A stretch of 38,842 nucleotides of DNA. Source: a bacterium. GTDB lineage: Bacteria > SZUA-182 > DTGQ01. Location: positions 1 to 38,842 of the forward strand of contig JBFMGO010000046.1 of NCBI GenBank assembly GCA_040752695.1, given 5' to 3'. Every line of letters begins with the position of its first letter. Position 1 is the stretch's first letter. The translations under genes were made by a program, and so were the position numbers. Under the pieces are notes generated by a model, which ran no database searches, had not been told where the DNA came from, and was given only the letters and a program-made list of their open reading frames with translations. Shown one piece after another: positions 2-29,011 of this stretch.

Positions 2-1590
2 CTCGACAGTTAAAAGTTTTATCTCAAGCAGCCCGTTTAAGTTGCTGAAAGTCGCAAGGCTGCGATTGTCTGGAACGAATTAAAGTATAAATCGCATGGG
101 CATTGATTGTGTGTAAATTTCTCAGGATGGTTTGAGTCAGTACCCCTTTGACAATATACTCAGAAGGAACCTTGTTGCTAAAGGTTCTCAGCCAATGTTG
201 ATTATCTTTCCAGATTTGTTCTGGGAACTGGAGAGCCAGGATTTGAAGTATTCCTACCAGGATAGCGGATACATTCACAAACCCTTCAATAGCTCTCAAC
301 TTGTCTTCTACCGCCGCCACAGGAATTTTTTGAGCAGGAGAATGTGAGTCCTTATTCTTTTTGGGGCGTCTACTCTTTTTTTCTACCAGCTTAGACCAGA
401 AATGGTAAGCTAACCCGCCAATGAGGTTTTTCAATACCCAGAACATGCTCTCAATGGAAGCTCTTCGGCAATACAGCTCCAGAATTTGAACTGCTGATAG
501 AGCCAGATCCGAGCACATCAGAACAATAGGGCCTCTGGAAGTAATAGCCAGAACAAAACGGATCTTACCCATGATGGGTTTCCAAAAAAGGTCGAGGCAC
601 AATATCTTTACCACCTCAGTGTTGCCATAAACACAACAGGTTGTTTCTGTAAACTCACTGGCTCTGTCTGCAAAGAGGTTTTGCAGGGTAAGCTTTTCCC
701 CATATTTCTTCTTTTTCCCTCTCTTGCCAGGAGGAGCAGGCTCAGGATCCAGATACGCCACGGCATTTTTCTTGGCATGAGTGATAATGTGCACCCAGGG
801 AACTCTCGCCGCAACACTGTAAACCCCTGCTGCCAGCAAAAACACAGGGCCAACAGCAAAATAGCTGTCCAGATTCAGGTAGCAGGGACAATTCATATTC
901 TCAGCAATGCGGATGGCTTGGTAGACAATCCGGGTTGCCTTACTATAGCCATCTTTTTTGTTGACTTCATCTCTGTCCAATTCTCCCAAGAGGGGAATAG
1001 CAAAGCATTTTTGAACAGCACGTTCCATGACCAAGGCTATGAAGCACCACACATGGCCTCGATAGTAACTGGGCTTACTCGATGTCTCTGAATCCTGGTG
1101 GATTCAAACCAATCCAGGCATCTTACGTCCCTCTTTGGGCTGATTGGTATGGTCCCCAACCATCACTGATCTTCCCTGAACCTTCAGACAGAAGCTATCT
1201 TGAAAACAATAACTCTGCCAAAACCCCAGTAACCCCTCAAGTGTCCACCCAGTTGAGTGAAAAAAGTGTAACATCGTCCAATAGCACCCAGGGTCTAGCG
1301 AAAGCCAGCGTACTATACTGCTCACCCCGTAGTGATCTGCCCGCACTACCAGTCCTATCATGATAACTAAAAACCACTGATAGCTCGCTACTCGTGAAAA
1401 GCATGGCCGAAAATTCTTCAAAATGCCGAATAGTTTCTCATCCATAGGTGGTTTTCTCCGTAAACTTTTGCTAAGGGTTTATGAAAATCATCTATGGATA
1501 CTTTTCTTACTATTCCATGAAATTAGCTCACCTATCCTCTAAAATTTCCTTACCCTTCCTCCTCTTGGATGAGAACTTTTAACTGTCGAG
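2..1590 (-). mobile_element. Insertion sequence (DDE transposase, IS4/IS701-like), about 1.59 kb
   Basis: Perfect 17-bp terminal inverted repeat: ctcgacagttaaaagtt (2-18) and aacttttaactgtcgag (1574-1590), enclosing the transposase ORF. The target-site duplication cannot be judged because the left flank is only 1 nt. Confidence 0.88.
24..1445 (-). pseudogene. DDE transposase interrupted by a single in-frame TGA (1104-1106)
   Basis: ORFs 1104..1445 and 24..1052 are in the same frame, and reading through gives ...KMPGLV*IHQDSETSSKPSYYRGHVWCF. Motifs VMVGDHT, LDSYFA and YCRRASIESMF (Y-2-R-3-E) are typical of DDE transposases. Confidence 0.85.
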
Positions 1591-1826: not shown

Positions 1827-1856
1827 TTGACATTCAGACAGCAGACTTTTTATAAT
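1827..1856 (+). promoter_or_regulatory. Sigma70-type promoter of the radical SAM/peptide unit
   Basis: Consensus TTGACA (1827-1832), 18-nt spacer, TATAAT (1851-1856), with an A-rich tract upstream. Confidence 0.7.
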
Positions 1857-1958: not shown

Positions 1959-3320
1959 ATGTATAGATACAAGAGCTCGCAATTCAATCTTTTTATTCCC
2001 ATCGACGACTCTGAAGAATGTCTCATATTTAACACTTTCACCGGTTCGGAAGTGGTAGTTGACCGGCATTTAAGAGCGCTTATTGAAATTGAAAAGAACC
2101 AGTCTTCCGGTGAGCCGCTCTCTCCTTTTGATGAATCAAACCTGGATCAGCTCAAAGAGCTGGGCATACTGGTTGATGAGCATGCTGATGAGGATCGGGA
2201 GTTGGAGTACTGGTTCCAGAAAATCAAGTTTGATACTTCGATGCTTGCCATTACCATCCTGCCTACGCTGGCCTGTAATCTGAAGTGTACCTATTGCCTT
2301 CAGGATGGCCTTCAGTCCGACACCTTCATGAGCTGGGAAACGTGCAGTCTGGTGGTTGCCTGGATCAAAAAGAAAATGGAGGACATCCGTCCAGCCACCC
2401 TGAGTATTCTTTATTACGGTGGAGAGCCCCTTCTGAACCTGCCAGCCATCACCTATCTCAGCCAGTCTCTTTACGAGGCTGCCAGGGCTCATGGAATCAG
2501 GCTGGATATACAGATTGTTACCAACGGCGTTTTACTCAAAAGGGAAGTGGTGGATGCTTTGCTTCCTCTGGGCTTGAGCGGAGTAAAGATTACCCTGGAT
2601 GGCGACGAAGATGCCCATAATCTCAAACGCCCCTTTAAGGACGGCCAGGGGAGCTTTCAGCAGATCTTTCAAAATCTGGTTCAGATCTATGGCAGGGTAC
2701 CTGTCAGGCTGGGTGGAAACTTTGATGAGCACAATAAGGGCTCAATTCCCGGTCTGCTTGATCGTCTTCTCGGAGCAGGAATAAGGGACAAGCTGGAACA
2801 GGTTCATTTTAAACCGATACTTACCAGCCCTGCCTGCCAGAAAAAAGGTGGAAGCTGCCAGGTTTGCACTTTCTCCGAGGCCAATCCAGGGGATATACTC
2901 TGGCTCAGGAGGGAGATAGAAAAAAGAGGCTTCAAGACCAACGACGGCATACACTTAGGGCCGTGCATGGTCATGAGGGAACATTCCTACACCATAGATC
3001 CCGTCGGTAAGATCTATAAATGCGGCGGCTTTGTTGGAATGGATGACTTTTCCGTCGGAAATCTTCATCATGACACTTTTCATTACCGGCTGACCGAATT
3101 CATGACCACCGACCTTTGGAGAAAGTGTCGTGGTTGTCCATTCATTCCTCTGTGCGCAGGAGGATGCAGGAGCAGTGCCTTCCTGAAAGGAAGTGATTTT
3201 TTCCAGCCAGTATGCGAAAAAAGGTATTTTAACCAGGTGGCCATGCCTCTGATTAAAGAGGAATATCTTCGCAGTAACAAAGGAGGTGAATTCGATGAGG
3301 ATTATCAAGAAGGGCAGTAA
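1959..3320 (+). CDS. Radical SAM/SPASM-domain peptide maturase (resembles geopeptide-type maturases)
   Basis: CNLKCTYC (CX3CX2C), YYGGEPLL, VTNG, ITLDG. C-terminal SPASM cysteines GPC...YKC...CRGCPFIPLCAGGC...C. N-terminal ~90 aa look like an RRE/PqqD-type extension. Start placed at ATG 1959 (G-rich SD at 1944-1950); the ORF track starts at 1923. Confidence 0.9.
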   Translation: MYRYKSSQFNLFIPIDDSEECLIFNTFTGSEVVVDRHLRALIEIEKNQSSGEPLSPFDESNLDQLKELGILVDEHADEDRELEYWFQKIKFDTSMLAITILPTLACNLKCTYCLQDGLQSDTFMSWETCSLVVAWIKKKMEDIRPATLSILYYGGEPLLNLPAITYLSQSLYEAARAHGIRLDIQIVTNGVLLKREVVDALLPLGLSGVKITLDGDEDAHNLKRPFKDGQGSFQQIFQNLVQIYGRVPVRLGGNFDEHNKGSIPGLLDRLLGAGIRDKLEQVHFKPILTSPACQKKGGSCQVCTFSEANPGDILWLRREIEKRGFKTNDGIHLGPCMVMREHSYTIDPVGKIYKCGGFVGMDDFSVGNLHHDTFHYRLTEFMTTDLWRKCRGCPFIPLCAGGCRSSAFLKGSDFFQPVCEKRYFNQVAMPLIKEEYLRSNKGGEFDEDYQEGQ

Positions 3321-3375
3321 GATTGTAGTGCCGAATCCGGATTGTCAATTCATTATTGATTTTAGATTTCATTGA
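3295..3375 (+). CDS. Putative RiPP precursor peptide, 26 aa: MRIIKKGSKIVVPNPDCQFIIDFRFH
   Basis: Translated by hand; not in the ORF track. Strong SD AAGGAGGTGA at 3280-3289, ATG 3295, TGA 3373-3375. Overlaps the rSAM 3' end and is followed by an intrinsic terminator. Confidence 0.8.
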   Translation: MRIIKKGSKIVVPNPDCQFIIDFRFH

Positions 3376-3433
3376 TTATTATGAAATAATCTGTTATATC
3401 TTCTATCAGCTATTTATTTCTTAATACAATACA

Positions 3434-3468
3434 CGGGCCGGATGAAAAACGTCCGGCCTGGTTTTTTT
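3434..3468 (+). terminator. Rho-independent terminator after the precursor peptide
   Basis: Stem cgggccggatg / cgtccggcctg (11 bp including G-U pairs), 5-nt loop, followed by gTTTTTTT. Confidence 0.8.
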
Positions 3469-3585: not shown

Positions 3586-5184
3586 ATGCAGAGTAAAAGG
3601 TTGCCTGCTCTTTTTATCCTCTTCAGCCTTCTCATCGGCCAGGTTTCGTGTCACAAACAGGATGCGCCTGCCAAACCGTTTAGAGGCACTCTCACCATCG
3701 GCGAGTTCATCAGGCCGCAAACCTTAAATCCAGTTCTTGAGGTCACTGGCGTTTCGGCACATCTGGTGAATCTCATCTTCGACAGCCTGGTCAGGATCGG
3801 GGAAAAAGGTGAAATCCTGCCTCATTTGGCAGTTTCCTGGGAGATGAAAGGCGGCGGCAGGGAATGGGTCTTCTATCTGAGAAAGGGGGTAAGGTTCCAT
3901 GACGGGCGTCAATTGAGTGCCGATGATGTAAAATTTACCCTGGACCTGGTCAGAGATCCTGCCCTTGGGAGCGGCTATGCTCGTTCTCTCAGCCAGATTG
4001 CGAAAGTGGAGGTCAGGGATTCATACACAATCGGCATCTCTTTGACTGAGCCCTCGGTTTCCCTTCCCCATGAAATAAACATTGGCATCCTGCCAAGGCA
4101 CCTTCTCGAGGGAGAGAATATCCGGGCAAGCTCGTTTAACTATCATCCGGTAGGCACCGGTCCTTTTCAATTCGTCCGATGGTCCCGGGATGAGGTTGAA
4201 TTTGCGGCTAACCTTAATTATTTTCTGGGAAGACCATATCTCGATCACGTAGTGGTCAAATCATTTAAGAATCAGTATCTTGTCAGTGCAAACCTGATGA
4301 GGGGCGAAATCGATGCCTTTCCGTTTCTTGCTTCCAGCTCGTATGAAGTAATAAAAAAAATCCCCTCTTTCAGGGTCTATCCCACCTTAAGGCCTTTCTA
4401 TTATTTGATCGCCTTTAATCTGTCCAATCCTCTGTTTCAGGACAGGAGGGTTCGTCAGGCCCTTAATTACGCTATAGATAAGGAAAACATCGTAAAAAGG
4501 GCGTTGAAGGGGAGAGGAATTGCTGCATCGGGCACAATCTTTCCCTCTTCCTGGGCCTTTGATGACAGGATCGAGCCGTTCCCCTATGATCCCTGTAAGG
4601 CAATGGAGTTATTGAAAGAGGCCGGCTGGCAGGATTCTGACGGAGACCACGTCCTGGATAAGAACAATCAGCCGTTTACGTTTGATCTTTATTTAGTCGA
4701 GGGTCACGATGAGCTTGAAACTTCTTCTTTGATAGTTATGGAGCAGTTGGCAAATATCGGAGTAATGGCCAGTGTGAAGAAGGTGTCCCTGGAGGTTCTT
4801 ATCCGGGAGCATCTTTTCTTCAGGGAATTCGGGGCTGTCTTTATATATATATACGCCGGCAGTGACCCGGATAAAAGCTATAATTTTTGGCATTCCTCAA
4901 GTAATAAGGCTGGATTAAATTTCTTTTCTTATGCTAATCCCAGGGTTGATCATTTGCTCGACCAGGGCAGGCGCACGCTGGATCAGGAGAAGAGAAAAAG
5001 AATCTATGGTCAGCTTCAGGAGGAGATGAAAGAAGACCCTCCTGGGATATTTCTTTTCTGGAAGGAAAATCTCCTTTGCGTGCATAAGCGGTTCTGTGGG
5101 ATAACGGTATCACCGTTTCAAGGAGGACTCAACAGCATCCGGGAGTGGTATATATGTCCTGCTGACGAAATGAAGCATGATTGA
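3586..5184 (+). CDS. Family-5 (OppA/AppA-like) peptide-binding lipoprotein, copy 1
   Basis: Lipoprotein-type signal (LLIGQVSC), LRKGVRFHDG, PVGTGPF, FQDRRVRQALNYAID. Confidence 0.9.
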   Translation: MQSKRLPALFILFSLLIGQVSCHKQDAPAKPFRGTLTIGEFIRPQTLNPVLEVTGVSAHLVNLIFDSLVRIGEKGEILPHLAVSWEMKGGGREWVFYLRKGVRFHDGRQLSADDVKFTLDLVRDPALGSGYARSLSQIAKVEVRDSYTIGISLTEPSVSLPHEINIGILPRHLLEGENIRASSFNYHPVGTGPFQFVRWSRDEVEFAANLNYFLGRPYLDHVVVKSFKNQYLVSANLMRGEIDAFPFLASSSYEVIKKIPSFRVYPTLRPFYYLIAFNLSNPLFQDRRVRQALNYAIDKENIVKRALKGRGIAASGTIFPSSWAFDDRIEPFPYDPCKAMELLKEAGWQDSDGDHVLDKNNQPFTFDLYLVEGHDELETSSLIVMEQLANIGVMASVKKVSLEVLIREHLFFREFGAVFIYIYAGSDPDKSYNFWHSSSNKAGLNFFSYANPRVDHLLDQGRRTLDQEKRKRIYGQLQEEMKEDPPGIFLFWKENLLCVHKRFCGITVSPFQGGLNSIREWYICPADEMKHD

Positions 5185-5239
5185 AAAATTCCGGGCATCC
5201 ATCCGCTCCGAGACAGGATGAATACGACCTGCAAACGCC

Positions 5240-6844
5240 ATGAATAGCAAGAAGCTGATTGTACTGTTTATATGTGCAAATCTTCTCCATGGTCAGTTTT
5301 CATGCTCTAAGAAGCGGAACGATACGCCTGCCAAACCGTTTAGAGGCACTCTCACCATCGGCGAGTTCACCAGGCCGCAAACCTTAAATCCAGTTCTTGA
5401 GGTCACTGGCGTTTCGGCACATCTGGTGAACCTCATCTTCGACAGCCTGGTCAGGATCGGGGAAAAAGGTGAAATCCTGCCTCATTTGGCAGTTTCCTGG
5501 GAGATGAAAGGCGGCGGCAGGGAATGGGTCTTCTATCTGAGAAAGGGGGTAAGGTTCCATGACGGGCGTCAATTGAGTGCCGATGATGTAAAATTTACCC
5601 TGGACCTGGTCAGAGATCCTGCCCTTGGGAGCGGCTATGCTCGTTCTCTCAGCCAGATTGCGAAAGTGGAGGTCAGGGATTCATACACAATCGGCATCTC
5701 TTTGACTGAGCCCTCGGTTTCCCTTCCCCATGAAATAAACATTGGCATCCTGCCAAGGCACCTTCTCGAGGGAGAGAATATCCGGGCAAGCTCGTTTAAC
5801 TATCATCCGGTAGGCACCGGTCCTTTTCAATTCGTCCGATGGTCCCGGGATGAGGTTGAATTTGCGGCTAACCTTAATTATTTTCTGGGAAGACCATATC
5901 TCGATCACGTAGTGGTCAAATCATTTAAGAATCAGTATCTTGTCAGTGCAAACCTGATGAGGGGCGAAATCGATGCCTTTCCGTTTCTTGCTTCCAGCTC
6001 GTATGAAGTAATAAAAAAAATCCCCTCTTTCAGGGTCTATCCCACCTTAAGGCCTTTCTATTATTTGATCGCCTTTAATCTGTCCAATCCTCTGTTTCAG
6101 GACAGGAGGGTTCGTCAGGCCCTTAATTACGCTATAGATAAGGAAAGTATCATAAAAAGGGTATTGAAGGGGAGAGGAATTGCTGCATCGGGCACAATCT
6201 TTCCCTCTTCCTGGGCCTTTGATGACAGAGTCGAGCCGTTCCCCTATGATCCCTGTAAGGCAATGGAGTTATTGAAAGAGGCCGGCTGGCAGGATTCTGA
6301 CGGAGACCACGTTCTGGATAAGAACAATCAGCCGCTTGCATTCCAGATTTACCTCCCTGATGGTTACGATGAACTTGAATCATCTTCTTTCATGATTATG
6401 GAGCAGTTGGCAAGCGTCGGGGTAATGACCAGGGGGGAGAAGTTTCCGGTGGAGATTTTCAACCGGGAGCATCTGCTCACCAGGAAATTTGAGGCTGTTT
6501 TTATGTTCGCTAATGCTGGCGGCGACCCGGATAGCAGTTATCAATTCTGGCATTCCTCATCGGCCAGGGGGGGATTTAATTTCTTTTCTTATCATAATCC
6601 CGGGATTGACCAACTGCTCGATCAGGGTAGGAGCACACGGGATCAGAAGGAGAGAAAAAGAATCTACAGTCGGTATCAGGAGGAAATAAAAGAAGACCCT
6701 CCTGGAATATTTCTTTTCTGGAAAGAGAATCTCCTCTGCGTTCATAAGCGGTTCTGTGGAATACATGTCTCTGCGTTTTACGGGGTATTCAACAGCATCC
6801 GGGAATGGTATATATGCCCTGATGACGAAAGAAAGCATGACTGA
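5240..6844 (+). CDS. Family-5 peptide-binding lipoprotein, copy 2
   Basis: Same motifs as copy 1. About 820 bp nearly identical to copy 1 at offset +1660. Confidence 0.9.
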   Translation: MNSKKLIVLFICANLLHGQFSCSKKRNDTPAKPFRGTLTIGEFTRPQTLNPVLEVTGVSAHLVNLIFDSLVRIGEKGEILPHLAVSWEMKGGGREWVFYLRKGVRFHDGRQLSADDVKFTLDLVRDPALGSGYARSLSQIAKVEVRDSYTIGISLTEPSVSLPHEINIGILPRHLLEGENIRASSFNYHPVGTGPFQFVRWSRDEVEFAANLNYFLGRPYLDHVVVKSFKNQYLVSANLMRGEIDAFPFLASSSYEVIKKIPSFRVYPTLRPFYYLIAFNLSNPLFQDRRVRQALNYAIDKESIIKRVLKGRGIAASGTIFPSSWAFDDRVEPFPYDPCKAMELLKEAGWQDSDGDHVLDKNNQPLAFQIYLPDGYDELESSSFMIMEQLASVGVMTRGEKFPVEIFNREHLLTRKFEAVFMFANAGGDPDSSYQFWHSSSARGGFNFFSYHNPGIDQLLDQGRSTRDQKERKRIYSRYQEEIKEDPPGIFLFWKENLLCVHKRFCGIHVSAFYGVFNSIREWYICPDDERKHD

Positions 6845-6926
6845 AAACTCCCTGGCATTCATCCGCTCCTACGGAATGGGTATGACCTGCAAACGCCATA
6901 AGTCCAGCTTTTATAGTCATCTTATA

Positions 6927-6955
6927 TTGACATTTCATAACGTAAGGCATAAGAT
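6927..6955 (+). promoter_or_regulatory. Putative sigma70 promoter for SBP3
   Basis: TTGACA (6927-6932), 17-nt spacer, TAAGAT (6950-6955), in an AT-rich intergenic region. Confidence 0.55.
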
Positions 6956-7023
6956 AATATACACATAATTATATACGGCAGTTATATTCTTAAGGTATAT
7001 TATAAATAATCTCTCTCCTCTCC

Positions 7024-8643
7024 ATGGATCGTAAGAAGCTCATTGCACTGCTTATAATCGTAAACCTTCTCCTGGGTCAAGTCTCATGCTCTAAAAAGCG
7101 GAACGATGCGCCTGCCAAACCGTTTGGAGGCATCCTTACCATTGGCGATATTGCCAGTCCGGGGACCTTAAACCCTCTTCTGGAGGTTAGTGGGATCTCA
7201 GCTCAGCTTGTGAACATTATATTTGACACTTTGGTCAGGGTAGGGGATGAAGGCGAGATTCTGCCGGGCCTTGCGGTATCCTGGGAAATGAATGAGTGCG
7301 GCAGGGAATGGATCTTTCACCTCAGGGAAGGAGTAAGGTTCCATGACGGCCACCCGTTTACGGCTGACGATGTTGAATTTACTGTCAATCTGGCTAAAGA
7401 TCCTCATGGAGGGAGCAAATTCGTTCATATCTACGACCAGATTGAGAAAATAGAGGCCAGAGGCCCATACACGATCAGCATGCGTATTGCCAGGCCAGCG
7501 GTTTCTTTTATTCATGCGATGACCCAGTTGCGCATTTTACCCAGACATCTTTTGCAGGAAAAGGATATCCGCACGGTCTCGTTCAATTACCAGCCGGTAG
7601 GCACCGGCCCTTTTCGGCTCATACGATGGTCTTTGGACAGGGTTGAGTTCGAGGCCAACAGGGACTACTTTCTGGGGAGGCCATATCTTGACCGGGTGGT
7701 GGTAAAATTATTTGACAATCAGCGCCTTGTCTGGGCACATTTGATGAATGGCGAGGTTGATACCATGAAGCTTCCCGATCCTATCATGTATAAGATAATT
7801 AAAAAGATACCCGATTTCAGGGTCTACTCCAGCCTGAAGCCTTATTACTACATTATCGGTTTTAATCTGGCCAATCCTCTTTTTCATGACAGAAAGGTTC
7901 GCCTGGCTCTGAATTATGCCATAGACAGGGAAGATATTATTAGACGGATATTAAAATGGCGGGGGATTGCCACAGCAGGTACAATCTCCCCCTGCTCCTG
8001 GGCCTTTAACGCCCAAATGAAGCCATTTGTCTTCAATACTCACAAGGCAGTGGAACTACTGAAAGAGGCGGGCTGGCAAGACACTGATGGCGATCTCATA
8101 CTGGATAAAAACAACCAGCGGTTTGAATTTCAGATTTACCTCCCTGATGGCTACGATGAACTTGAGGCAGCCTCTTTAATGATTGTGGAGCAATTATCAA
8201 ACATCGGAATAGTTACCAGAGTCAGGAAGTTACCCATGAAGGCGATCAATCAGGAATATCTTCTGACCAGGAAGTTTGATGCCGTCTTTATCTATATTTC
8301 TGCCGGCACTGATCCGGATTTTAATTACCAGTTCTGGCACTCCTCACAGATCGATAACGGGTTTAACTTCTTTTCTTACCGTAATCACAGGATTGACCAC
8401 CTGCTCGACCAGGGGAAGTGCACATCTTCTCAGGAGAAAAGGAAAGAAATTTATTACCAGTATCAGGAGGAAATGAGGGAAGATCCCCCCGCTCTATTTC
8501 TTTTCTGGCGGGATCATCTTTTGTGTGTACATAAGCGGTTTCATGGAGTGGATTGCGGATCTGTCTATAGAGGGCTGTATAGTATCCGGGACTGGTATAT
8601 AGCCGCAGACGAAGAAATGGGAGAGAGGGCTGAAAAGAAATAA
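7024..8643 (+). CDS. Family-5 peptide-binding lipoprotein, copy 3 (more divergent)
   Basis: LLGQVSC lipobox-like signal, LREGVRFHDG, PVGTGPF, DRKVRLALNYAID. Confidence 0.9.
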   Translation: MDRKKLIALLIIVNLLLGQVSCSKKRNDAPAKPFGGILTIGDIASPGTLNPLLEVSGISAQLVNIIFDTLVRVGDEGEILPGLAVSWEMNECGREWIFHLREGVRFHDGHPFTADDVEFTVNLAKDPHGGSKFVHIYDQIEKIEARGPYTISMRIARPAVSFIHAMTQLRILPRHLLQEKDIRTVSFNYQPVGTGPFRLIRWSLDRVEFEANRDYFLGRPYLDRVVVKLFDNQRLVWAHLMNGEVDTMKLPDPIMYKIIKKIPDFRVYSSLKPYYYIIGFNLANPLFHDRKVRLALNYAIDREDIIRRILKWRGIATAGTISPCSWAFNAQMKPFVFNTHKAVELLKEAGWQDTDGDLILDKNNQRFEFQIYLPDGYDELEAASLMIVEQLSNIGIVTRVRKLPMKAINQEYLLTRKFDAVFIYISAGTDPDFNYQFWHSSQIDNGFNFFSYRNHRIDHLLDQGKCTSSQEKRKEIYYQYQEEMREDPPALFLFWRDHLLCVHKRFHGVDCGSVYRGLYSIRDWYIAADEEMGERAEKK

Positions 8644-9020
8644 AGTTTTTCTTCCCTTGCTCAAAGCGAGTTGCTCTGTATACTTAATGAAGTATATGTA
8701 TCCATTAATTTGGTAATATTCAATGTGCTCCGGTATCGAGTACCTGATCAATTATAGCGGCTTGCAGTCGTATGCACTACACATAATACGCTATCATTGG
8801 CGGTTTAGCGGCAACTATTGGAGTCTCGTCAAGCGAAAGCCACTATAGGATATTGAGGAGCAACTGGAGCTTTCGCTCAGAATGACACGGCTGGGTAAAT
8901 TGAGCCCAGGGGTCATTATCTTCCCCCTCAATCGGAGCTTGACTGGTCGCCAGCCGAAAAGCGGGGATAGTGCAGCTTTTTTCGCTGCACTGCAAAGAGA
9001 AGGGAGGAAATAAGCAATCT

Positions 9021-11036
9021 ATGGGAAAAAGATCCTTTATGTGCCTGATCATTGGACTTTTGTGTCTCGGTCCGGTTTCTTTGCCAGGGGCCGAGGAGGA
9101 GGTGCATTATCTCGATCCTGTTATTGTCTCCGTGGACAGAATTCCCCAAACCCTGACTCAATCGACCAGTTCAGTTACCGTAATCAGCGGGGAAGAGCTG
9201 GCTGATGCCTCCCCTGCGCGAATCGATGAAATACTGAGAGGGACTCTGGGCGCATCCATAAATACCTCCGGCACTCCTGGAGAGACTATCTCGGTTCGTT
9301 TGCGAGGGAGCGGCAATAACCAAACCATGGTCTTAATTGACGGTATGAAGGTTAATTCTCCCTGGAATGGCGCCTATGGAGAATGGGGCAATACGGAGAT
9401 GACCGACATTGGCCGGATCGAGATTATTCGCGGGCCCCAAAGTGAACTGTATGGCTCGGAAGCCATAGGAGGGGTAGTGCATCTTTTTACCGGGAAAGGA
9501 GAGGACTCCCGCGGCCTTGAGATCTCCTTAGGAGGGGGAAGTTTTAAAACGAAGAAGGAATCTCTGGAGTATGCCGGCGGAGGGGAAAATGTCAATTTTC
9601 TCCTTTCCGCATATCACACAAAATCACGGGGACAGTATGATAACAAAGACGCTTACCGCAATGCCGGCCTTGCAGCAGGATTCGGCTGGCAGGCCAGTCC
9701 CCTGTTTTCTCTCAAAGCGGTCTGCCGGTACAGAGAAAACAGAAAAGAACTGGCGGTAAATCCGGATGAATTTTTCTTTCTGGATTCAAACGCATCCGTT
9801 TATCTGGGACCTGATAATCCTGATAAACACCAGCAGACCATGTTCTGGGACAATGACGGCGTCCGGCGCGATCGTTTCTTCCTGCAAACCCTGTCCGCAG
9901 AAGGAGACCCCAGCCGCTGGTGGCATTACCGGCTGAATGCAGGCTACTTGCAGGACCATTACCGAGCCGAAAAAGGATTATATTACGGCACTACCACTAC
10001 CTTTATTGCCGACATATTGAGTGACCGGCTGTCAGTAGGGACACAGCACGACTTTACCCTGTCCGACGAGCTTCCCAATACCTTCAGCCTGGGAGTGGAA
10101 TACGAACAGGAGACTGTAGACGCAGAGCAGGATTTCACCGGTGATCCCAACGACATCATCCCTCCCTTGCGGTCAGTGTTTTTTGACACTGTCGATAAGA
10201 ACCGGCACAACCTGTCCCTGTTTTTCCAGAACCGGCTTGAGGTGCACCCTTTGACCATAACCGCCGGACTCAGATGGGACGATAACTCAGCCTACGGAGA
10301 GGTCTTTAGCCCCCGCATCAGTGAGTCCTTCTGTATCGACCCGACCAAAACCCGCCTTAAAGCCAGTTGGGCACAAGGGTACAGGGCTCCTAACTTTCAG
10401 GAACTCTATTTTCCTTTCCTGGGAAATCCCGATCTCAAACCGGAAAAATGCACCGGTTTTGAAGCGGGTTTCGAGCAGCCCATTCTGGACAGGCTCTCTA
10501 TCGGATGCACCTATTTCCACACCAAATTCGAAGATCTTATCTCCAAGCCAGGCGGTGCCCGCAATATCAATGCCGCCGTTGTCGAGGGGATCGAAGGGGA
10601 ACTCGCCTGGGATCCTCTTCCCTCGTTAGGGTTTCGGATTTCCTATACCTGGCTCGATTCGCAGGACAAGAAGACGAATAAAGAACTTACTGACCGGCCG
10701 AATCATACGGTTAAGATAGCGGCTGACTACAGCTATGCGGGATTTTCCGTGCATCCACTCGTCAACATAGTCAGCAGTGAATATGCCGATTACGCCTCAC
10801 TGGACCTTCAGGGGAATCCGATTAAAGAGCGCAATCCTGGCTACACGCGAGTGGATGTGACCTTTCAATACGAAATTGTCCATCAGTACGCATCGAAAAG
10901 CCATTGCCTGTCAAAAGGCCGGCTGCAGTGGTATGGCCGTATCAATAACCTGTTTGATGAGGACTACTGCGAGGTGCAGGGTTTTCCTACCCCTGGAATA
11001 AATTTTATGACCGGCATTACGGCTGCATTTTACTAA
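9021..11036 (+). CDS. TonB-dependent outer-membrane receptor (plug + beta-barrel, BtuB-like fold)
   Basis: Signal peptide, TonB-box-like DPVIVS, plug motif RIEIIRGPQSELYGSEAIGGVV, GNPDLKPE, INNLFDEDY, C-terminal aromatic residue. Start at ATG 9021 after AGGGAGGA; the ORF track starts at 8970. Confidence 0.92.
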   Translation: MGKRSFMCLIIGLLCLGPVSLPGAEEEVHYLDPVIVSVDRIPQTLTQSTSSVTVISGEELADASPARIDEILRGTLGASINTSGTPGETISVRLRGSGNNQTMVLIDGMKVNSPWNGAYGEWGNTEMTDIGRIEIIRGPQSELYGSEAIGGVVHLFTGKGEDSRGLEISLGGGSFKTKKESLEYAGGGENVNFLLSAYHTKSRGQYDNKDAYRNAGLAAGFGWQASPLFSLKAVCRYRENRKELAVNPDEFFFLDSNASVYLGPDNPDKHQQTMFWDNDGVRRDRFFLQTLSAEGDPSRWWHYRLNAGYLQDHYRAEKGLYYGTTTTFIADILSDRLSVGTQHDFTLSDELPNTFSLGVEYEQETVDAEQDFTGDPNDIIPPLRSVFFDTVDKNRHNLSLFFQNRLEVHPLTITAGLRWDDNSAYGEVFSPRISESFCIDPTKTRLKASWAQGYRAPNFQELYFPFLGNPDLKPEKCTGFEAGFEQPILDRLSIGCTYFHTKFEDLISKPGGARNINAAVVEGIEGELAWDPLPSLGFRISYTWLDSQDKKTNKELTDRPNHTVKIAADYSYAGFSVHPLVNIVSSEYADYASLDLQGNPIKERNPGYTRVDVTFQYEIVHQYASKSHCLSKGRLQWYGRINNLFDEDYCEVQGFPTPGINFMTGITAAFY

Positions 11037-11389: not shown

Positions 11390-13165
11390 ATGAAATCTCC
11401 ATCGATTAATCATGTATCTACGAAAATATCCATTAAACTCATATGCCTGCTGGTTCTCTCTGCTCTGGCTCCTCTTAGCGTCTATGGGATCTTCTCTATT
11501 TATACCTCAAGAAAAGCATATTATCAATCCGCCTCGGAAGGGAACAAGCATGTAGCCATTGGAACTGCTGAGCAGATTGAGCTTTACGTAAAAAATACCC
11601 ATAATATCCTGCAGGGGCTGGCCAGCAATATTAATCGAATTTATCTGAACAAGTGGCAAAAAGAGGTTATCATCAGGAATTTCGTTATCAACTTTGACGA
11701 ATTCAAGAAGATTTCCATCATTAACTCCAATGGTCGAGAGGTGGCCAGCAGCAGTCTGGATGAAAACCCATTTGACTGGTCACATGAAGAGTCTTTCAAA
11801 AAGGCCATGCAGGGAGAGGTCTATTTCTCTGAAGTCTTTATCTCTGACAATCTGGTGCCTTCCATGATTATTGCGCTTCCCATTAAGGGTTCCCATATCG
11901 TTGACGGTGTTATCCTTGGGGAGGTTGACCTTTCGGCTATGTGGAACCTGGTGGACGGAATTAAAATGGGAGAAAATGGCGTTGTTTTTGTGGTTTCCCG
12001 CACAGGGCTTCTTATCGCCCACGGAAAGAGCGAGCGGAAACCGGATGTCTTCAAACAGAGGAACATGAGTGACTTTGAGGTCGTCAAATCCGTCCTGCAG
12101 GGTAAAACCGCCGCGCGAACCTATCAGAACGAAGATGGTCTTCAGGTATTGGGAATCGGTTATCCCATGAAAATGCTAGGATGGGGGGTGATTGCCGAGC
12201 AGCCTACCAGAGAAGCGTACAAGGTAGCTATCAGCATGACCCGCTCCCTGTCCGCACTCACCGTTCTTTTTCTGGTGATTATGATTACCATCGGTATTAT
12301 TGGAGGAAAGCAGGTAACCAGGCCTATTTATGAGTTGGTCGAGGCAACCAGGGCCATTGCCGCAGGGGACCTCACCAGGAAGGTGAGAGTCTCTTCCAGG
12401 GATGAATTCGAAGGGCTGGCCAATTCGTTTAACCTGATGACCGAAAGACTGGTCGAGCTCAAGGAGGAGATCCGTCTGCGCGAGCGATTATCGATCTTTG
12501 CCAGAATAGCCGCCGGTCTGGTTCACGACCTGAAGCATCCGATCAAGAACATCGAGAACAGCAGCAGTCTTATCCTGCGCTTCTACTACGATCAGGAATA
12601 CCGTGAGGTATTCCGCAAAACGGTTCAAAGAGAGTTCCTCAACATTAATCAGTTCCTGAACGACCTGCATAATCTTACTCATCCGACTCCCATAGCGCTC
12701 ATAGAGTTGCCTGTCGAGGCTATTACCAAGGAAATCATCAATCTTTACACAGACGAAGCCCGCCAGAAGGGGATTGAATTAAAGTTTTTCTCTCAGGCCC
12801 AGGACGTACGGATACTGGCTGACAGGTTCCTGTTTGAGAGAATCATCAAGAACCTGGTCACGAACGCCATAGAAGCCATGCCTGGCGGCGGCACCGTGCG
12901 TATCACCCTCACCAGGGATGACAGGTATGAAAGTGGAAGAGGAGCGGTCAGGATATCGGTGGAAGATACCGGCCAGGGAATACCCAAAGAGCGGATTGAT
13001 ACTATTTTCACCGACTATATCACTACCAGGAAAAGAGGGCTGGGACTGGGACTGGCTATAACCAAAAAAAATGTCTCAGAACTCGGCGGGAGTATAACAC
13101 TGCACAGTGAAGAAGGGAAAGGCTCTACCTTTATCCTAACCTTTCCTCTTCGTCATAATCAGTAA
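11390..13165 (+). CDS. Membrane sensor histidine kinase (Cache-HAMP-HisKA-HATPase)
   Basis: Two TM segments flank a dCache-like periplasmic domain. HAMP (RPIYELVEATRAIAAGDL...DEFEGLANSFN), H-box VHDLKHP, N-box NLVTNA, DTGQG, GLGLGL. Confidence 0.92.
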   Translation: MKSPSINHVSTKISIKLICLLVLSALAPLSVYGIFSIYTSRKAYYQSASEGNKHVAIGTAEQIELYVKNTHNILQGLASNINRIYLNKWQKEVIIRNFVINFDEFKKISIINSNGREVASSSLDENPFDWSHEESFKKAMQGEVYFSEVFISDNLVPSMIIALPIKGSHIVDGVILGEVDLSAMWNLVDGIKMGENGVVFVVSRTGLLIAHGKSERKPDVFKQRNMSDFEVVKSVLQGKTAARTYQNEDGLQVLGIGYPMKMLGWGVIAEQPTREAYKVAISMTRSLSALTVLFLVIMITIGIIGGKQVTRPIYELVEATRAIAAGDLTRKVRVSSRDEFEGLANSFNLMTERLVELKEEIRLRERLSIFARIAAGLVHDLKHPIKNIENSSSLILRFYYDQEYREVFRKTVQREFLNINQFLNDLHNLTHPTPIALIELPVEAITKEIINLYTDEARQKGIELKFFSQAQDVRILADRFLFERIIKNLVTNAIEAMPGGGTVRITLTRDDRYESGRGAVRISVEDTGQGIPKERIDTIFTDYITTRKRGLGLGLAITKKNVSELGGSITLHSEEGKGSTFILTFPLRHNQ

Positions 13166-13272
13166 CACCGGGTGCTTCCGTGCCGGGTGCCGGGTTTTTG
13201 CGTGCTGGACTTAACCGGTGACTGATCACTGATCATTGATCACCGGGCACTGGTCATTGACCACCGGTCACC
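13166..13272. repeat. Short tandem heptamer repeats between convergent genes
   Basis: ccgggtg-type units, then gactgat/cactgat/cattgat/caccggg/cactggt units. Confidence 0.55.
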
Positions 13273-16200
13273 AGTTGAAGCCCCTTGGGCAGGGACTCGC
13301 CAAAGACAAGGCTTTGCTCCCTGGATTGATAATGACTTACCTCTATGACACTCTGAATGGCCTGGTCCAGCGTAATCACCTCATGTTTTCGACTGTCCTC
13401 CCTGAGTGCCTCTTCCCTGGCCTGGGTAAAAAATGCTATGAGCTGGTCCCTGACCGAGTCCCTTATGTCCCGTGCCCGATCGGAGGTCTTTCGGGCCAGT
13501 TGGGTCAGGGCAAAAGTCTTTTCATCTCTGGGAAGCGTTTGTATTTTTAACAGGCGTACGACCCATTCCTCCGCAGTTTCAGCAGGAACAACCGAATGGA
13601 CGCTGCCGTAAAGGGGCTGGCGTGCCCCGATTCTGGCTAAAGCCCACAGATCGGCCGGCAGGGATTTGCCCAGCGACAGGCGATCCAGCAGGATACTGCC
13701 CATGGTTTCTTTGGTTTTTATGTCCAGCCGCTCAAGGCTCGCGCCCAGTCTCCACATTTCGGCCAATTCATGTAAAGATGGCTTCGGTCCTGCGGGAGCT
13801 TTTTTCTGGGGGATAAGATACGGCATAATTTTCCGGAAGATTTCCATCTGGTGATTCTGGTTGAGCCCACCGGCCACTCTCCGGCAGAGAATCCAGGTCT
13901 GATTTTTGACTTCCCGGTCTTTCATGTCCTTTATCCCCTGAGGAAGTACTTTCCACAGGTTTTTTATCCGCCACTCGTCCAGAGGATAACCGAATCCCGG
14001 ACGCAGGCAAAAGCCTAAAAGATTCAACCATCGTGCTTCCTGGGTTGCGGAGCGCCCCTTTTGCCCTGCGAATTCAAGGAGCATTTCGCTCATCTTACGT
14101 AAGGTGAAAATGGGCCAGGACTGCCGGGGGGCATCGAGCGCTTCTTCCATTTTTTTAAAGAGATTATCCGGCGTCACTTTTCCCGCTTCCGGCTCTCTTG
14201 CACCGTCACCAAAAACCGATGACAAAAGCGGCCTCACCTTCTCTACATCCAGGGCTTCTCCTTCCCCGGCGGCAGGCTCTAAATCTTCCACAAGCGAGGA
14301 GACAGCCTTTTGTTTTTTAACCTCCCGGATCCCAAACTGGAGTCTCCACTGCCGGTCTCCCTCCCTGGAGACGCACCATAATTCCAGGGTTCCGATCTCA
14401 GTCAGCCTGGCCCGCAGGTGCACCGGCACTTTTTTATGCTTGGCCCGGCCCCGGCGTAAAATGGTCTGAATCGGCGGAAGGAGCCGAAAGGACTCATCCA
14501 TCGTCTCCGATCCTTTTGCCGACTCCTGCGACTCTTCCTGCTTTGCGCTTTCTGTCGGTTCTTCAGGCTCCTGTGGCTCTGGCCGCATTGAGACATCCGA
14601 TACGGTAACCGGCAGAATGTCTCCGGCCTGGTCCAAAAGGCGGGTGCTGGAGGTGTAGAGAGGAAAACTCACCGGCTCGCCAATCAAAAGAACAAATTCT
14701 TTATCTTTGATCTCGACCTCCTGGCCTTCCTCCATTTTTCGGGGAACCAGGCACAGGGCCCTGGGGGTATGTTGTGCTCCCACATCTTTTTGCTCTTCGG
14801 TGCCGACACCTATGTAGTAGGACCGGCCAATACCTCCGCTGATGCGAATACCTTTCCCCTGCCGGACCTGCCCGTAATAGGCTGCGCCGTAAGCAACAGC
14901 CAGATCCCCCATTTCGGGGAAGAGAACCGTCGGGCTCCATCTGTTTTCAGCCTCACCGGACCCCTGTCCATGGTTTGCCGGGAACCAGCCCTCCATGATC
15001 CGGACAACCCTGTCCTGCAAAAACCTGGGCTTGAGTGCACCGCCGTTGAAGAGAATGGCATCGGGTCTGGCCAGATCCGCGTCAGGCTGGCCTGTCTTCT
15101 CCCTCAGTTCCCGGATACTGGCCTGATGCTTGCGCAAAAAGGAAGCAAGGTGCCGGGACACGGCGGTATCCTGTACATAGGGAAGCCCCCACTCCTGCAG
15201 GCCCATCCGGGATGAGCGGACCGGCTCTTCTTCCAGCCTGCTTATGGGAAAAAAGCCATTTTCGACAATCTCCTTCACTAGTTCCCTGCTCAAATCAAAT
15301 TTCAGGGTGCTCCCGATCAACCGGCTGCTTCGGTCCTGAACGACAATCGGCCAGGAGGTATGCTCGTAAGGTTCGCTTAAAAGCTCCTCTTTGGCCCTTC
15401 GGCAGCCGTGACACAACATTGACCATTGGCCGGAATCGAGTTTTCCCGCCTGGCCCGTCAGCTTGACCTCGATATGACGGGCCAGGGCCATATCGATGTT
15501 ATCCCCGCCCAGAATCAGGTGATCACCTACAGCCACGCGGGTGAACACAGGCTTGCCTCCCTCTTCCTGCACGGTAATCAGGCTGAAATCGGTAGTGCCG
15601 CCCCCCATATCGCAGATAACCACGATCTGGCCGTTGTGCAGGTACTGATGCCAGGAGTCGCGGTTGGTGGCGATCCAGGCATAAAAGGCAGCCTGAGGCT
15701 CTTCCAGGAGGGTTACCTTTTCAAGACCCGCTTTCAGCGCGGCATCCAGAGTCAATTCCCTTGCCACCTCATCGAAAGATGCGGGAACGGTCAGGATAAC
15801 GTCCTGATTTTGCAATTGGTTTTCCGGCTCCCCTTGAGCCATCTCGTGGTTCCAGGCATCGCGGATGTGCTGTAAATAGCGGGAAGAAGCTTCCACGGGA
15901 GAGAGTTTTTCCAGATCCTTTCCCCCGCTCCAGGGTAAAATGGCGGCTTTGCGATCAACTCCGGCATGGCAGAGCCAGGATTTAGCCGAAGAAACCAGAC
16001 GGGACGGCACACTGGCCCCCAGTTTCTTGGCAAATTCACCCACGACAAAGGTAATTTCCCTGTCCCAGGGCAGGCGGATGTTTTCCTGCATCAGCTCATG
16101 CGGTCCGGCCAGATACAGGTAAGAGGGAAGCATCGGCAGGGAAGAAAGATTCCCCTCGGAAACCAGTTGCAGGGTTCGGAAGATTTTAATCTCTCCTGCG

Positions 16201-16334
16201 GAGCTGTTTTCCACATAGGCCACCGCACAGTTAGTGGTCCCGAGGTCAATACCAACGGTAAAGGGTGCCGGCCGTTTTCCCGAAGGTATTGGCACGGTTG
16301 GTGATTTTACTTTCGAAGAATGATTCATATTCAT
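13254..16334 (-). CDS. Atypical Hsp70-family protein with long C-terminal extension (DUF3731-like)
   Basis: GIDLGTTNC, TVPASFDE, LLEEPQAAFY, DMGGGTTD, LGGDNID. C-terminal helical region containing WLNLLGFCLRPGFGYPLD. Confidence 0.85.
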   Translation of the reverse strand: MNMNHSSKVKSPTVPIPSGKRPAPFTVGIDLGTTNCAVAYVENSSAGEIKIFRTLQLVSEGNLSSLPMLPSYLYLAGPHELMQENIRLPWDREITFVVGEFAKKLGASVPSRLVSSAKSWLCHAGVDRKAAILPWSGGKDLEKLSPVEASSRYLQHIRDAWNHEMAQGEPENQLQNQDVILTVPASFDEVARELTLDAALKAGLEKVTLLEEPQAAFYAWIATNRDSWHQYLHNGQIVVICDMGGGTTDFSLITVQEEGGKPVFTRVAVGDHLILGGDNIDMALARHIEVKLTGQAGKLDSGQWSMLCHGCRRAKEELLSEPYEHTSWPIVVQDRSSRLIGSTLKFDLSRELVKEIVENGFFPISRLEEEPVRSSRMGLQEWGLPYVQDTAVSRHLASFLRKHQASIRELREKTGQPDADLARPDAILFNGGALKPRFLQDRVVRIMEGWFPANHGQGSGEAENRWSPTVLFPEMGDLAVAYGAAYYGQVRQGKGIRISGGIGRSYYIGVGTEEQKDVGAQHTPRALCLVPRKMEEGQEVEIKDKEFVLLIGEPVSFPLYTSSTRLLDQAGDILPVTVSDVSMRPEPQEPEEPTESAKQEESQESAKGSETMDESFRLLPPIQTILRRGRAKHKKVPVHLRARLTEIGTLELWCVSREGDRQWRLQFGIREVKKQKAVSSLVEDLEPAAGEGEALDVEKVRPLLSSVFGDGAREPEAGKVTPDNLFKKMEEALDAPRQSWPIFTLRKMSEMLLEFAGQKGRSATQEARWLNLLGFCLRPGFGYPLDEWRIKNLWKVLPQGIKDMKDREVKNQTWILCRRVAGGLNQNHQMEIFRKIMPYLIPQKKAPAGPKPSLHELAEMWRLGASLERLDIKTKETMGSILLDRLSLGKSLPADLWALARIGARQPLYGSVHSVVPAETAEEWVVRLLKIQTLPRDEKTFALTQLARKTSDRARDIRDSVRDQLIAFFTQAREEALREDSRKHEVITLDQAIQSVIEVSHYQSREQSLVFGESLPKGLQLVTGGQ

Positions 16335-16372
16335 GATTTTTCAGCTAGTTATCATTATCGTCATCAGTATGG

Positions 16373-17335
16373 TCAGGGAATCCCGACTCTTTTTTTTACC
16401 TCGCGCATCGTTTCGGCGGCAATGGACCGGGCTTTGTCAGCTCCGGCTTTTAACACTTTTTTCACGGACTCCGTATCCGCATCCAGGGCCTTTTTTCTTT
16501 CCCGGTGAGGGGCAAAATACTGCCAGACCGCCTCCAGGAGGGCTTTTTTTACCTCTCCGTATCCTATGCCTCCTTGCAGGTAGCGGTTTTGCAGGTCTAC
16601 GGTCTCATCCGGGGAGAGGAAAAGCTTATAGAGATTGAAAACAGTACAGGCAGCAGGGTCTTTGGGCTCTTCCACACTCTTGGAGTCGGTTACGATACTC
16701 ATGATCTTTTTCTTAAGCTGGTTTTTTTCGGCAAAGATTTCGATGGTATTATTATAAGATTTTGACATTTTTTGACCATCTATGCCTGGAACTACTGCTA
16801 CCTCCTGGCTGATCTCCGGTTCAGGGATGGTGAATACATCCCCGTACTGTGCATTGAACTTAAGGGCGATATCACGGGTAACCTCAAGGTGCTGCTTCTG
16901 ATCCTGCCCCACCGGGACCCTCTGCGAGTGGTAGAGAAGGATATCCGCGGCCATCAGAACCGGATAGGTAAACAGGCCGGTGTTGGGGCTGATTCCTCTG
17001 GCGGTTTTATCTTTATAAGAATGGCATCGCTCCAGGAGGCCTACCGGAGTCAAATTGGATAAAAACCAGGTGAGCATCGTTACTTCTTCTACATCGGACT
17101 GGACCCAGAAGATCGATTTTTCGGGATCAAGGCCCAGGGCCAGGAAAGTAGTGGCCGCATCGAGGGTCTGTCTGGCCAGTATCTGGCCGTCATTCACCGT
17201 AGTCAGGGCATGAAGGTTGGCGATAAAACAAAAAAGCTCATGCTGCTCCTGATATTCAATCATTTTTCTCATCATGCCGAAATAGTTTCCAATATGAAAA
17301 CTACCTGACGGCTGAATGCCCGATAGTATCCGCAT
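16373..17335 (-). CDS. trpS: Tryptophan--tRNA ligase
   Basis: SGIQPSGSFHIGNY (HIGH motif), YPVLMAADIL, VPVGQDQKQH, KMSKS. Confidence 0.97.
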   Translation of the reverse strand: MRILSGIQPSGSFHIGNYFGMMRKMIEYQEQHELFCFIANLHALTTVNDGQILARQTLDAATTFLALGLDPEKSIFWVQSDVEEVTMLTWFLSNLTPVGLLERCHSYKDKTARGISPNTGLFTYPVLMAADILLYHSQRVPVGQDQKQHLEVTRDIALKFNAQYGDVFTIPEPEISQEVAVVPGIDGQKMSKSYNNTIEIFAEKNQLKKKIMSIVTDSKSVEEPKDPAACTVFNLYKLFLSPDETVDLQNRYLQGGIGYGEVKKALLEAVWQYFAPHRERKKALDADTESVKKVLKAGADKARSIAAETMREVKKRVGIP

Positions 17336-28981: not shown

Positions 28982-29011
28982 TCTTTCATTTCTCCTCAAA
29001 TATAGGGGCTG

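Follow-up and report, generated by a model that had tools for sequence, protein, structure and literature searches.

A 26-codon gene overlapping a radical SAM/SPASM maturase gene: a probable peptide precursor of an unnamed family with a recurrent sensory neighbourhood

The window analysed here is a bacterial DNA stretch of 38,842 nucleotides (NCBI GenBank assembly GCA_040752695.1, contig JBFMGO010000046.1, forward strand), and the element under study is a very short gene at the 3' end of a gene for a radical S-adenosylmethionine (rSAM) enzyme. The latter (1959..3320, plus strand) encodes a predicted rSAM/SPASM peptide maturase of 453 amino acids (aa) with an N-terminal domain resembling the recognition element (RRE) for RiPPs, peptides that are made by the ribosome and modified after translation. 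The short open reading frame (ORF), a candidate precursor gene, occupies 3295..3375 on the same strand, from ATG 3295 to TGA 3373-3375, and specifies the 26-aa product MRIIKKGSKIVVPNPDCQFIIDFRFH. It overlaps the maturase gene, whose TAA is located at 3318-3320, by 26 nt (3295-3320). Its Shine-Dalgarno (SD) sequence, AAGGAGGTGA at 3280..3289 (plus strand), lies inside the final rSAM codons, 5 nt 5' of the ATG. An intrinsic terminator-like hairpin with a T run (3434..3468, plus strand) closes the rSAM-peptide unit; the hairpin at 3434-3460 has 11 pairs, 8 of them G-C, and the T run extends to 3468. Ahead of the operon we found a putative sigma70-type promoter, TTGACA-18-TATAAT (1827..1856, plus strand), recognised purely by its match to the consensus (12/12 positions). 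The first-pass annotation of this DNA had described the ORF, a near-perfect SD sequence within the last rSAM codons, and the 26-nt overlap, and all of these, including the translation, were reproduced by computation. It had also taken the rSAM gene, the peptide gene, and the terminator as one unit. This arrangement recurs, as the gene pair is kept across clades and the peptide gene of several relatives, like that of the window, has a terminator-like hairpin 3' of it. An ORF of 26 codons alone is not beyond chance, as 128 ORFs of at least 20 aa occur in 9 kb. Its significance derives from the comparison across relatives. A tblastn search of its own genome with the peptide revealed no paralog.

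The likely start of the maturase gene is ATG 1959, and the same 453-aa protein is present in public gene calls (P0001). The protein scored 53.2 bits against Pfam PF04055 (Radical_SAM; cut-off 29.5) and 51.1 bits against the SPASM model TIGR04085 (cut-off 27). In an alignment of 38 homologs, the cysteines of the CX3CX2C motif (C106, C110, and C113) were invariant, as were seven SPASM cysteines (C336, C355, C390, C393, C399, C403, and C419), which correspond to two auxiliary clusters. The best NCBIfam family was TIGR04280, the 'geopeptide radical SAM maturase' model, a hypothetical equivalog, with 292.9 bits (cut-off 400). Lower scores were obtained with CefB (NF038107, 223.7 bits, cut-off 600), TIGR04463 (198.4 bits, cut-off 525), PapB (NF047865, 124.9 bits, cut-off 340), and QhpD (TIGR03906, 105.1 bits, cut-off 453). 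The best-scoring named families are all RiPP maturases, and each score is below the respective cut-off. In the AlphaFold2 model of the enzyme (predicted local distance difference test score, pLDDT, 88.8), the rSAM core is preceded by strands (residues 4-34) and helices (residues 36-90). Residues 444-453, encoded by the stretch that overlaps the peptide gene, have pLDDT values below 50 and appear disordered. The best full-length Foldseek matches were CteB (E 1e-20), then TigE and SuiB; with 457-476 columns, the CteB and SuiB alignments cover the entire chain. CteB was the best match in the Protein Data Bank by sequence, too (5wgg, E 1.4e-14). Pfam PqqD gave no match at 1e-3 in the maturase, and the N-terminal domain is RRE-like by whole-chain fold only. 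The short gene directly beside the enzyme gene is a further feature by which RiPP maturases are recognised.

We compared the locus with its relatives in a phylum sample of 20 genomes, three of which belong to the window's genus. Maturase orthologs occurred only in this genus (3/3 genomes), those of the two relatives, G001 and G002, being 69-71% identical to the window enzyme. Both relatives keep AAGGAGGTGA, located 6 nt 5' of the ATG, and the ORF, encoding MKIIKKGSKIVVPRPDCQVVIDWR in locus L002 and MKIIKKGSKIIVPRPDCQWVLDHR in L003; a hairpin with a T run lies behind either ORF. The stop codon of the rSAM gene, in contrast, moves: it lies 26 nt past the peptide ATG in the window, forms a 4-nt ATGA overlap in L002, and precedes the SD sequence in L003. 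As its position varies while the SD sequence and the ORF stay, it is the peptide frame, rather than the tail of the enzyme, that is under constraint. The codon differences in the three genus pairs comprise 8/5, 7/7, and 8/4 synonymous/non-synonymous changes, and differences in codons 1-22 fall on codon positions 1/2/3 in ratios of 2/2/10, 3/3/9, and 3/1/8, an excess at the third position. A frameshifted enzyme C-terminus was considered as an alternative origin of the ORF and rejected, because the enzyme stop shifts while the SD sequence and the ORF persist.

Homologs of the maturase are numerous outside the genus. Among 8,000 scored candidates, 683 had E <= 1e-30; they carry generic names only and are common in metagenome-assembled genomes labelled Nitrospinota, Nitrospirota, Thermodesulfobacteriota, and others. 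A metagenome scan with generic rSAM motifs returned 79 loci, most of them distant, with L015-L032 as the informative ones, and a scan of genome contigs with a single enzyme gave two distant loci only. Extraction of small ORFs next to rSAM homologs, as the first-pass annotation had proposed, revealed a homologous ORF behind the maturase at 15 metagenome loci. An ORF of 24-33 aa with an SD sequence is present 0-105 nt after the rSAM stop in 14/18 of the closest loci examined, and L032 is the fifteenth locus of this kind. L018, L022, and L027 reach their contig ends before or at the peptide position, and L044, L033, and L036 are incomplete or belong to other groups; every metagenomic maturase relative with sufficient 3' sequence has the ORF. 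The N-terminus of these peptides reads MK-I/V-x-I/V-I/V-K-K. When a regular expression for this leader was applied to 16,314 small-ORF variants from both strands of all loci, it matched 15 times, in each case an ORF at this position and on this strand. The window peptide gene shares the arrangement, being located on the maturase strand within about 105 nt of the maturase stop and preceded by its own SD sequence. Hairpins with T runs 3' of the peptide were observed not only in L002 and L003 but also in L015, L031, L021, L024, L025, L026, and L028.

A family profile built from 18 locus-derived peptides, in which the Cys is invariant, was searched against 1.84 billion representative proteins and matched 187 representatives at E <= 0.001. 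Motif counts rest on the 150 of these 187 that were listed, 144 of which are no longer than 60 aa. Among the latter, 132/144 have one Cys, 125/144 have C-x4-D, and 139/144 have C-x4-[DE]. In the 132 single-Cys matches listed, position Cys+5 holds D in 114 cases and E in a further 14 (128/132), Cys+1 is P in 97, Cys+4 is V or I in 115, Cys-4 is P in 96, and Cys-5 is K in 102; Cys+2 to Cys+4 are rich in W, F, Y, M, V, and I. The window peptide follows this pattern with I3-I4-K5-K6-G7-S8, P13 (-4), C17, I21 (+4), and D22 (+5). Its layout can be described as a leader of approximately residues 1-12, the conserved Pro13, the core Cys17-x4-Asp22, and the tail FRFH. The division into leader and core that had been read from the window alone agrees with the family alignment, since IIKKGS in the N-terminal half aligns with the best-conserved N-terminal block, and the C-terminal half contains the invariant Cys. 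The cross-link sites suggested at the same time fared unevenly: Cys17 and Asp22 are singled out by the family pattern, whereas Asp16, whose equivalent is mostly Y, F, V, or W, and the three Phe residues are not conserved. By leader, core, and position, the window peptide is a member of a large unnamed family of 24-34-aa precursors encoded directly 3' of the maturase. The family features are a leader of the form (MK)-I/V-x-I/V-I/V-K-K-G/A-S/T, Pro at Cys-4, usually a single Cys, and Asp or Glu at Cys+5. Family homologs were predicted by gene callers in many datasets as proteins of 29-34 aa, and the ten representative clusters checked are annotated as 'hypothetical protein' or unnamed. Neither NCBIfam (June 2026 release) nor Pfam had a match for the window peptide; likewise, an ortholog from the genus, six other peptides of the family, and five of the geopeptide type (L004, L006, L007, L008, and L010) matched no NCBIfam model. 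Four representatives (P0121, P0133, P0140, and P0219) carry two tandem cores (...KP...C-x4-D...) behind one leader, which helps to delimit the core unit.

The genes downstream of the rSAM-peptide unit, all on the plus strand, belong to the same cassette. The first (3586..5184) encodes a solute-binding protein (SBP) of the SBP_bac_5 family, SBP1, which has a signal peptide ending in Cys, is probably a lipoprotein, and represents a candidate receptor; its NCBIfam matches are Opp4A/NikA-like and below cut-off. Two paralogs follow, SBP2 (5240..6844; 86% identical to SBP1) and SBP3 (7024..8643; 60% identical to SBP1). The window has a tandem of three SBPs at 3586-8643, whereas in both relatives of the genus only one SBP gene stands behind the peptide gene; the candidate receptor has been amplified here, locally and recently. 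Further downstream are a TonB-dependent receptor with Pfam Plug and TonB_dep_Rec_b-barrel domains (8970..11036), which may provide an outer-membrane entry route, and a dCache_1-HAMP histidine kinase of the cassette type according to Pfam (11390..13165), with which the receptor is paired throughout the genus.

We then scanned the neighbourhoods of 13 loci, covering 29/53 ORFs, with enzymes, short ORFs, and minus-strand ORFs left out. An SBP_bac_5 protein is encoded after the peptide in 11/11 loci with enough 3' sequence. In L015, it comes after a gene for an SAM-dependent methyltransferase (4201-5115), which lies between the peptide and the SBP gene; the L015 peptide lacks the Asp, and the methyltransferase may act in tailoring. 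In L016, L019, L028, and L031, the SBP gene is followed by a gene for a dCache_1 protein, and L015 has a dCache kinase upstream. A response regulator with sigma54-activator and HTH_8 domains is encoded directly upstream of the enzyme in L017, L020, L023, L026, L028, L029, and L031. No ABC permease, ATPase, exporter, or peptidase was seen in the cassettes scanned. The cassette components co-vary in their identities. Between the window and L031, the enzyme is 49% identical, the SBP (SBP1 versus the SBP after the L031 peptide) 45%, and the kinase sensor region (versus the kinase after the L031 SBP) 51%; between the window and the soil clade, the corresponding values are 33-37%, 26-30%, and 28-33%.

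Control of the operon seems to differ between clades. Using the sigma54 consensus TGGCAC-N5-TTGCA and counting as a site any match at 8 or more of its 11 fixed positions, we found sigma54-type sites within 80 nt of the enzyme ORF in 7/12 loci examined; L015 has a 7/11 site. No such site was found upstream of the enzyme in the window, L002, L019, or L023. A TTGACG...TATAAT element upstream of the G002 ortholog (L002, approximately 1390-1425) aligns with the window promoter. Judging from these promoter elements, sigma54 control of the operon seems to have been abandoned in this genus through rewiring, with a sigma70-type promoter common to the window and G002. In G001 and G002, the enzyme, the peptide, and one SBP form a unit, the receptor-kinase pair is on another contig, and the regulator is on a third contig behind a different kinase. 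The receptor gene is directly upstream of the orthologous kinase gene in both genomes, at identities of 48-50% (receptor) and 65-69% (kinase). The genome of the window itself (G000) has a cassette-type regulator on contig C99 (394-1815), which is 59.5% identical to the L031 regulator, the next paralog reaching 41%. This end of the contig (C99:1-1815) consists of a 130-nt repeat, which also occurs on C34 at 99% identity, a truncated 3' fragment of a histidine kinase gene, and then the sigma54 regulator gene. In the window, an IS701-family transposase in two pieces (342 aa and 113 aa; 24-1445, minus strand) lies at the contig start, just 5' of the operon; in other clades, the sigma54 response regulator occupies this position. 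The regulator of the circuit is present but stands apart from the operon, apparently owing to mobile elements.

Two further gene groups of the window, both on the minus strand, were noted. The genes pilM, pilN, pilO, pilP, and a secretin gene, together with a gene for a large Invasin_D3-domain protein, occupy 26933-33663. In G001 and G002, this pil block directly follows the rSAM-peptide-SBP unit, which indicates a rearrangement in the window genome. At 13254-19350, a gene of the tryptophanyl/tyrosyl-tRNA-synthetase family lies between genes for two large Hsp70-like proteins, one of which has a 'DnaK-related' C-terminus (DUF3731); this group is unrelated to the peptide.

The core of the family suggests a particular chemistry. 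In the available excerpts of the literature, PapB acts on CX3D/E motifs, where it bonds the sulfur of Cys to Cbeta of Asp or Cgamma of Glu, and requires both the thiol and the carboxylate (PMC9413430), and QhpD forms Cys-Asp/Glu bridges in QhpC (PMC8172795). As far as these two excerpted sources go, they disagree on whether PapB acts on CX4D, a review stating that it does not and a 2022 paper that n = 0-6 is accepted (PMC9413430, PMC8172795). In the peptides of the window family, a Cys followed at a constant distance by a carboxylate, be it D or E, stands out as the one near-universal feature of the core, and this is the residue pair joined by PapB and QhpD. By this analogy, we slightly favour a Cys17-Asp22 thioether closing one six-residue ring as the modification. 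The peptide would be translated from its own SD sequence, coupled to the maturase gene that ends 26 nt into the peptide ORF, and its leader would bind to the N-terminal RRE-like domain in the form of a strand. The enzyme would then cleave SAM and abstract a side-chain hydrogen of Asp22, and the resulting carbon would be joined to the sulfur of Cys17, giving the thioether macrocycle with a mass change of -2 Da. Beyond this step, the thioether-cyclised peptide might leave the cell and re-enter the periplasm, in some lineages via the dedicated TonB-dependent receptor. There, the SBP_bac_5 protein might capture it and present it to the dCache histidine kinase, which would drive the sigma54 response regulator and thereby switch on the rSAM-peptide operon.

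How far these steps can be trusted depends on what else could account for the observations. The most basic alternative is a chance or untranslated ORF in a stretch whose nucleotides are conserved as an SD-like element, 3' untranslated region, or terminator region, or as the remnant of a longer enzyme C-terminus. The ORF is indeed very short, and the match to other clades is weak: a profile that excluded the genus gave the window peptide 10.2 bits, rank 15 among 229,118 small-ORF variants of its own genome, corresponding to a genome-wide E of 6.9. The alignment was nonetheless gapless over 20 residues, from IIKK through the Asp. Given this modest score, the similarity to the distant clade is convincing only jointly with the fixed position behind an orthologous enzyme. 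However, a chance ORF would not be expected to show third-position substitution bias and synonymous changes in the peptide frame, to persist although the rSAM stop may precede its ATG, coincide with it, or come 26 nt later, to have homologs with their own SD sequences in clades whose DNA cannot be aligned, or to be called as 29-34-aa proteins in many datasets, and we regard this explanation as highly improbable. We conclude that the peptide is very probably real, translated, and a substrate of the adjoining rSAM enzyme. Several points nevertheless weigh against parts of this picture. The peptide departs from the family pattern in having Q instead of P at Cys+1, V instead of K at Cys-5, and a leader that is two residues shorter; and 5/144 of the short representatives listed have no D or E at Cys+5. 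The peptides of L015 (...NWCEWSYW) and L031 (...LWCWWMIYK), which stand behind the closest non-genus maturases (46-49% identical), have an aromatic-rich tail and no Asp after the Cys, so that a carboxylate acceptor may not be obligatory for this group of enzymes. In addition, the PapB (124.9/340) and QhpD (105.1/453) scores are remote, and the chemistry is therefore not transferable by homology. These points bear on a second alternative, in which the precursor is real and the chemistry is of another kind: a Calpha sactionine, a cross-link (C-C or ether) to an aromatic or aliphatic residue, epimerisation, or modification of the Cys, with Asp22 serving recognition or function. The fold neighbours TigE (cyclopropylglycine) and SuiB (Lys-Trp), and the abundance of aromatic and aliphatic residues at Cys+2 to Cys+4 in the matches listed, would fit such a view. 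Against it stand the invariant Cys of the 18 locus-derived peptides and the fixed spacing of Cys and carboxylate in 128/132 single-Cys matches listed, which is the substrate pattern of PapB and QhpD as far as the excerpted sources describe it, and we therefore consider a chemistry other than the thioether unlikely.

The function of the product is a separate question. The view that the peptide is sensed rests on the co-occurrence and co-variation of the rSAM-peptide pair with the SBP_bac_5 protein, the dCache kinase, and the sigma54 regulator. It is possible, and we propose it tentatively from this genomic association, that the SBP_bac_5 protein and the dCache kinase inherited with the pair detect the product outside the cytoplasm. 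With slightly more reserve, the rSAM-peptide pair might be seen as the producing half of an autoinducing peptide circuit in diderm bacteria, with the geopeptide system as a parallel one that uses a different binding protein and Cache sensor. The main gaps of this proposal are export and leader removal, as neither a leader protease nor an exporter was seen in any cassette examined. This gap would fit the alternative that the product is no signal but an antimicrobial, a metal-binding peptide, or an intracellular factor, with the SBP, the kinase, and the sigma54 regulator controlling its production in response to an unrelated cue, or serving uptake or immunity. Family-5 SBPs also bind nickel and metallophores, and the best NCBIfam matches are NikA, CntA, and Opp-like proteins, all below cut-off; a TonB-dependent receptor occurs in the window cassette and before geopeptide precursors; and the kinase and regulator of the genus are unlinked from the rSAM-peptide-SBP unit. 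However, a non-signal product does not readily explain why the SBP follows the peptide in 11/11 loci without ABC permease or ATPase genes and with a Cache kinase after it, why the identities of the rSAM enzyme, the SBP, and the kinase sensor rise and fall together between clades, or why the sister geopeptide layout is analogous while built from a different SBP family and Cache type. We judge this alternative to be somewhat unlikely. A complex prediction for SBP1 (alignment of 12) with the peptide (alignment of 18; fewer than 30 residues) scored 0.01 against a mark of 0.32 and counts neither way. Taken as a whole, it is likely that ORF 3295-3375 is a genuine RiPP precursor gene, with its own strong SD sequence and in one terminator-closed unit with the RRE-rSAM-SPASM gene, and with a sensed product as a possible, speculative extension.

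The kind of system, an rSAM/SPASM RiPP, is known; the precursor family, its 3' position, the single C-x4-D/E core, and the sensory cassette are not covered by NCBIfam or Pfam. We found no description of this family in a literature search whose coverage lacked most subscription journals, and an earlier description, for instance in large rSAM-RiPP surveys, is possible. Radical SAM RiPPs are one of the main sources of new peptide chemistry, and their precursors are routinely missed, being too short for gene calling. The 26-codon ORF exemplifies a large family, with 187 representative clusters among called genes alone. With one Cys and one Asp or Glu five residues on, its members would be minimal natural substrates for thioether macrocyclisation, useful for enzymology and peptide engineering, as PapB studies illustrate. 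Unusual for a RiPP is the constant association with a periplasmic binding protein, with a kinase of the Cache type, and with a sigma54 regulator and the corresponding promoters. It makes directly testable the long-standing question of modified peptides as extracellular signals in Gram-negative bacteria.

The nearest named maturase family, with the same enzyme architecture, is that of the geopeptide system (TIGR04280). We know of no experimental work on this system, and a literature search on the word 'geopeptide' returned no paper, most subscription journals being outside its coverage. In a FastTree phylogeny of 30 enzymes, the family with a downstream peptide formed one clade of 17 tips (support 1.0), within which the window genus grouped with L015 and L031 (support 0.999), and the geopeptide enzymes formed a separate clade (support 1.0). 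The TIGR04280 scores separate accordingly into 245-296 bits for L015, L016, L019, L028, and L031 and 538-636 bits for L004, L007, L010, and L045. By the cut-off, the last four are true geopeptide maturases; L004, L007, and L010 come from the same order as the window and are about 35% identical to its enzyme. Because the window enzyme scores below the TIGR04280 cut-off and falls in a separate clade, we classify the window system on these grounds as a sister of the geopeptide system and not as a member. True geopeptide members occur in the window's bacterial order as well (L004-L012). Like the window peptide, geopeptide precursors are short, with a beta-strand-like leader (IIILD/IIVLKKG) followed by Cys and aromatic residues, and their neighbourhood is analogous, comprising a TonB receptor, a periplasmic binding protein, and a Cache sensor. 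L045, for instance, encodes a TonB receptor, the precursor, the enzyme, an ABC_sub_bind binding protein, and an sCache_4/HAMP sensor. They differ, however, in that their genes lie upstream of the enzyme and their 34-41 aa contain a CC motif, whereas the precursor gene of the window follows the enzyme gene and its product has one Cys, in C-x4-D. The cassettes differ as well, with ABC_sub_bind and sCache_4 in the geopeptide system and SBP_bac_5 and dCache_1 in the window family. In the geopeptide loci L004, L006, L007, L008, L010, L011, L012, and L045, upstream precursors of 32-41 aa usually stand behind a TonB-dependent receptor gene and have a leader of approximately (I/V)(I/V)(I/V)LD.G (IIVLKKG in L045), behind it a CC motif, for which L004 has single C residues, and then an aromatic tail. 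The window TonB receptor is 24-33% identical to receptor fragments from geopeptide loci, which indicates no specific orthology.

Among characterised systems, the window system is probably an rSAM/SPASM RiPP of the ranthipeptide-like kind, judging from enzyme and core. PapA/PapB, which yields freyrasin, a model ranthipeptide, shares with it the rSAM/SPASM enzyme and a Cys plus Asp/Glu residue pair in which D and E interchange, as described in the consulted parts of PMC9413430 and PMC8172795. PapA, however, has six CX3D motifs, whereas the window family has one CX4D/E, and the organism type and the neighbourhood differ too. QhpC/QhpD is likewise an rSAM/SPASM system with Cys-Asp and Cys-Glu side-chain thioethers, including Cys27-Asp33, and QhpC is a small Gram-negative polypeptide that reaches the periplasm (excerpts of PMC8172795). 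In contrast to the window peptide, QhpC serves as a subunit of an enzyme, quinohemoprotein amine dehydrogenase, and has a quinone cofactor besides three cross-links, and its operon includes a protease and an exporter. CteB, the enzyme of the CteA/CteB (SCIFF, thermocellin) system, is thioether-forming and the nearest solved structure, with a fold match that includes the N-terminal peptide-binding domain. Its identity to the window enzyme in the fold alignment is 17-19%, and SCIFF differs in its six Cys residues, its upstream gene, and its clostridial origin. SuiB, of the streptide type, is also among the fold matches of the window enzyme. The operon of the streptococcal systems is under the control of a cytoplasmic Rgg regulator together with another short peptide, and the modified peptide is not known to be the signal. 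As far as the excerpted source goes, these quorum-sensing-linked rSAM RiPPs resemble the window system in that short rSAM-modified peptides are encoded in operons tied to cell-cell signalling (PMC9389541). Unlike the Rgg type, the candidate sensors of the window system are a periplasmic binding protein and a Cache kinase of diderm bacteria.

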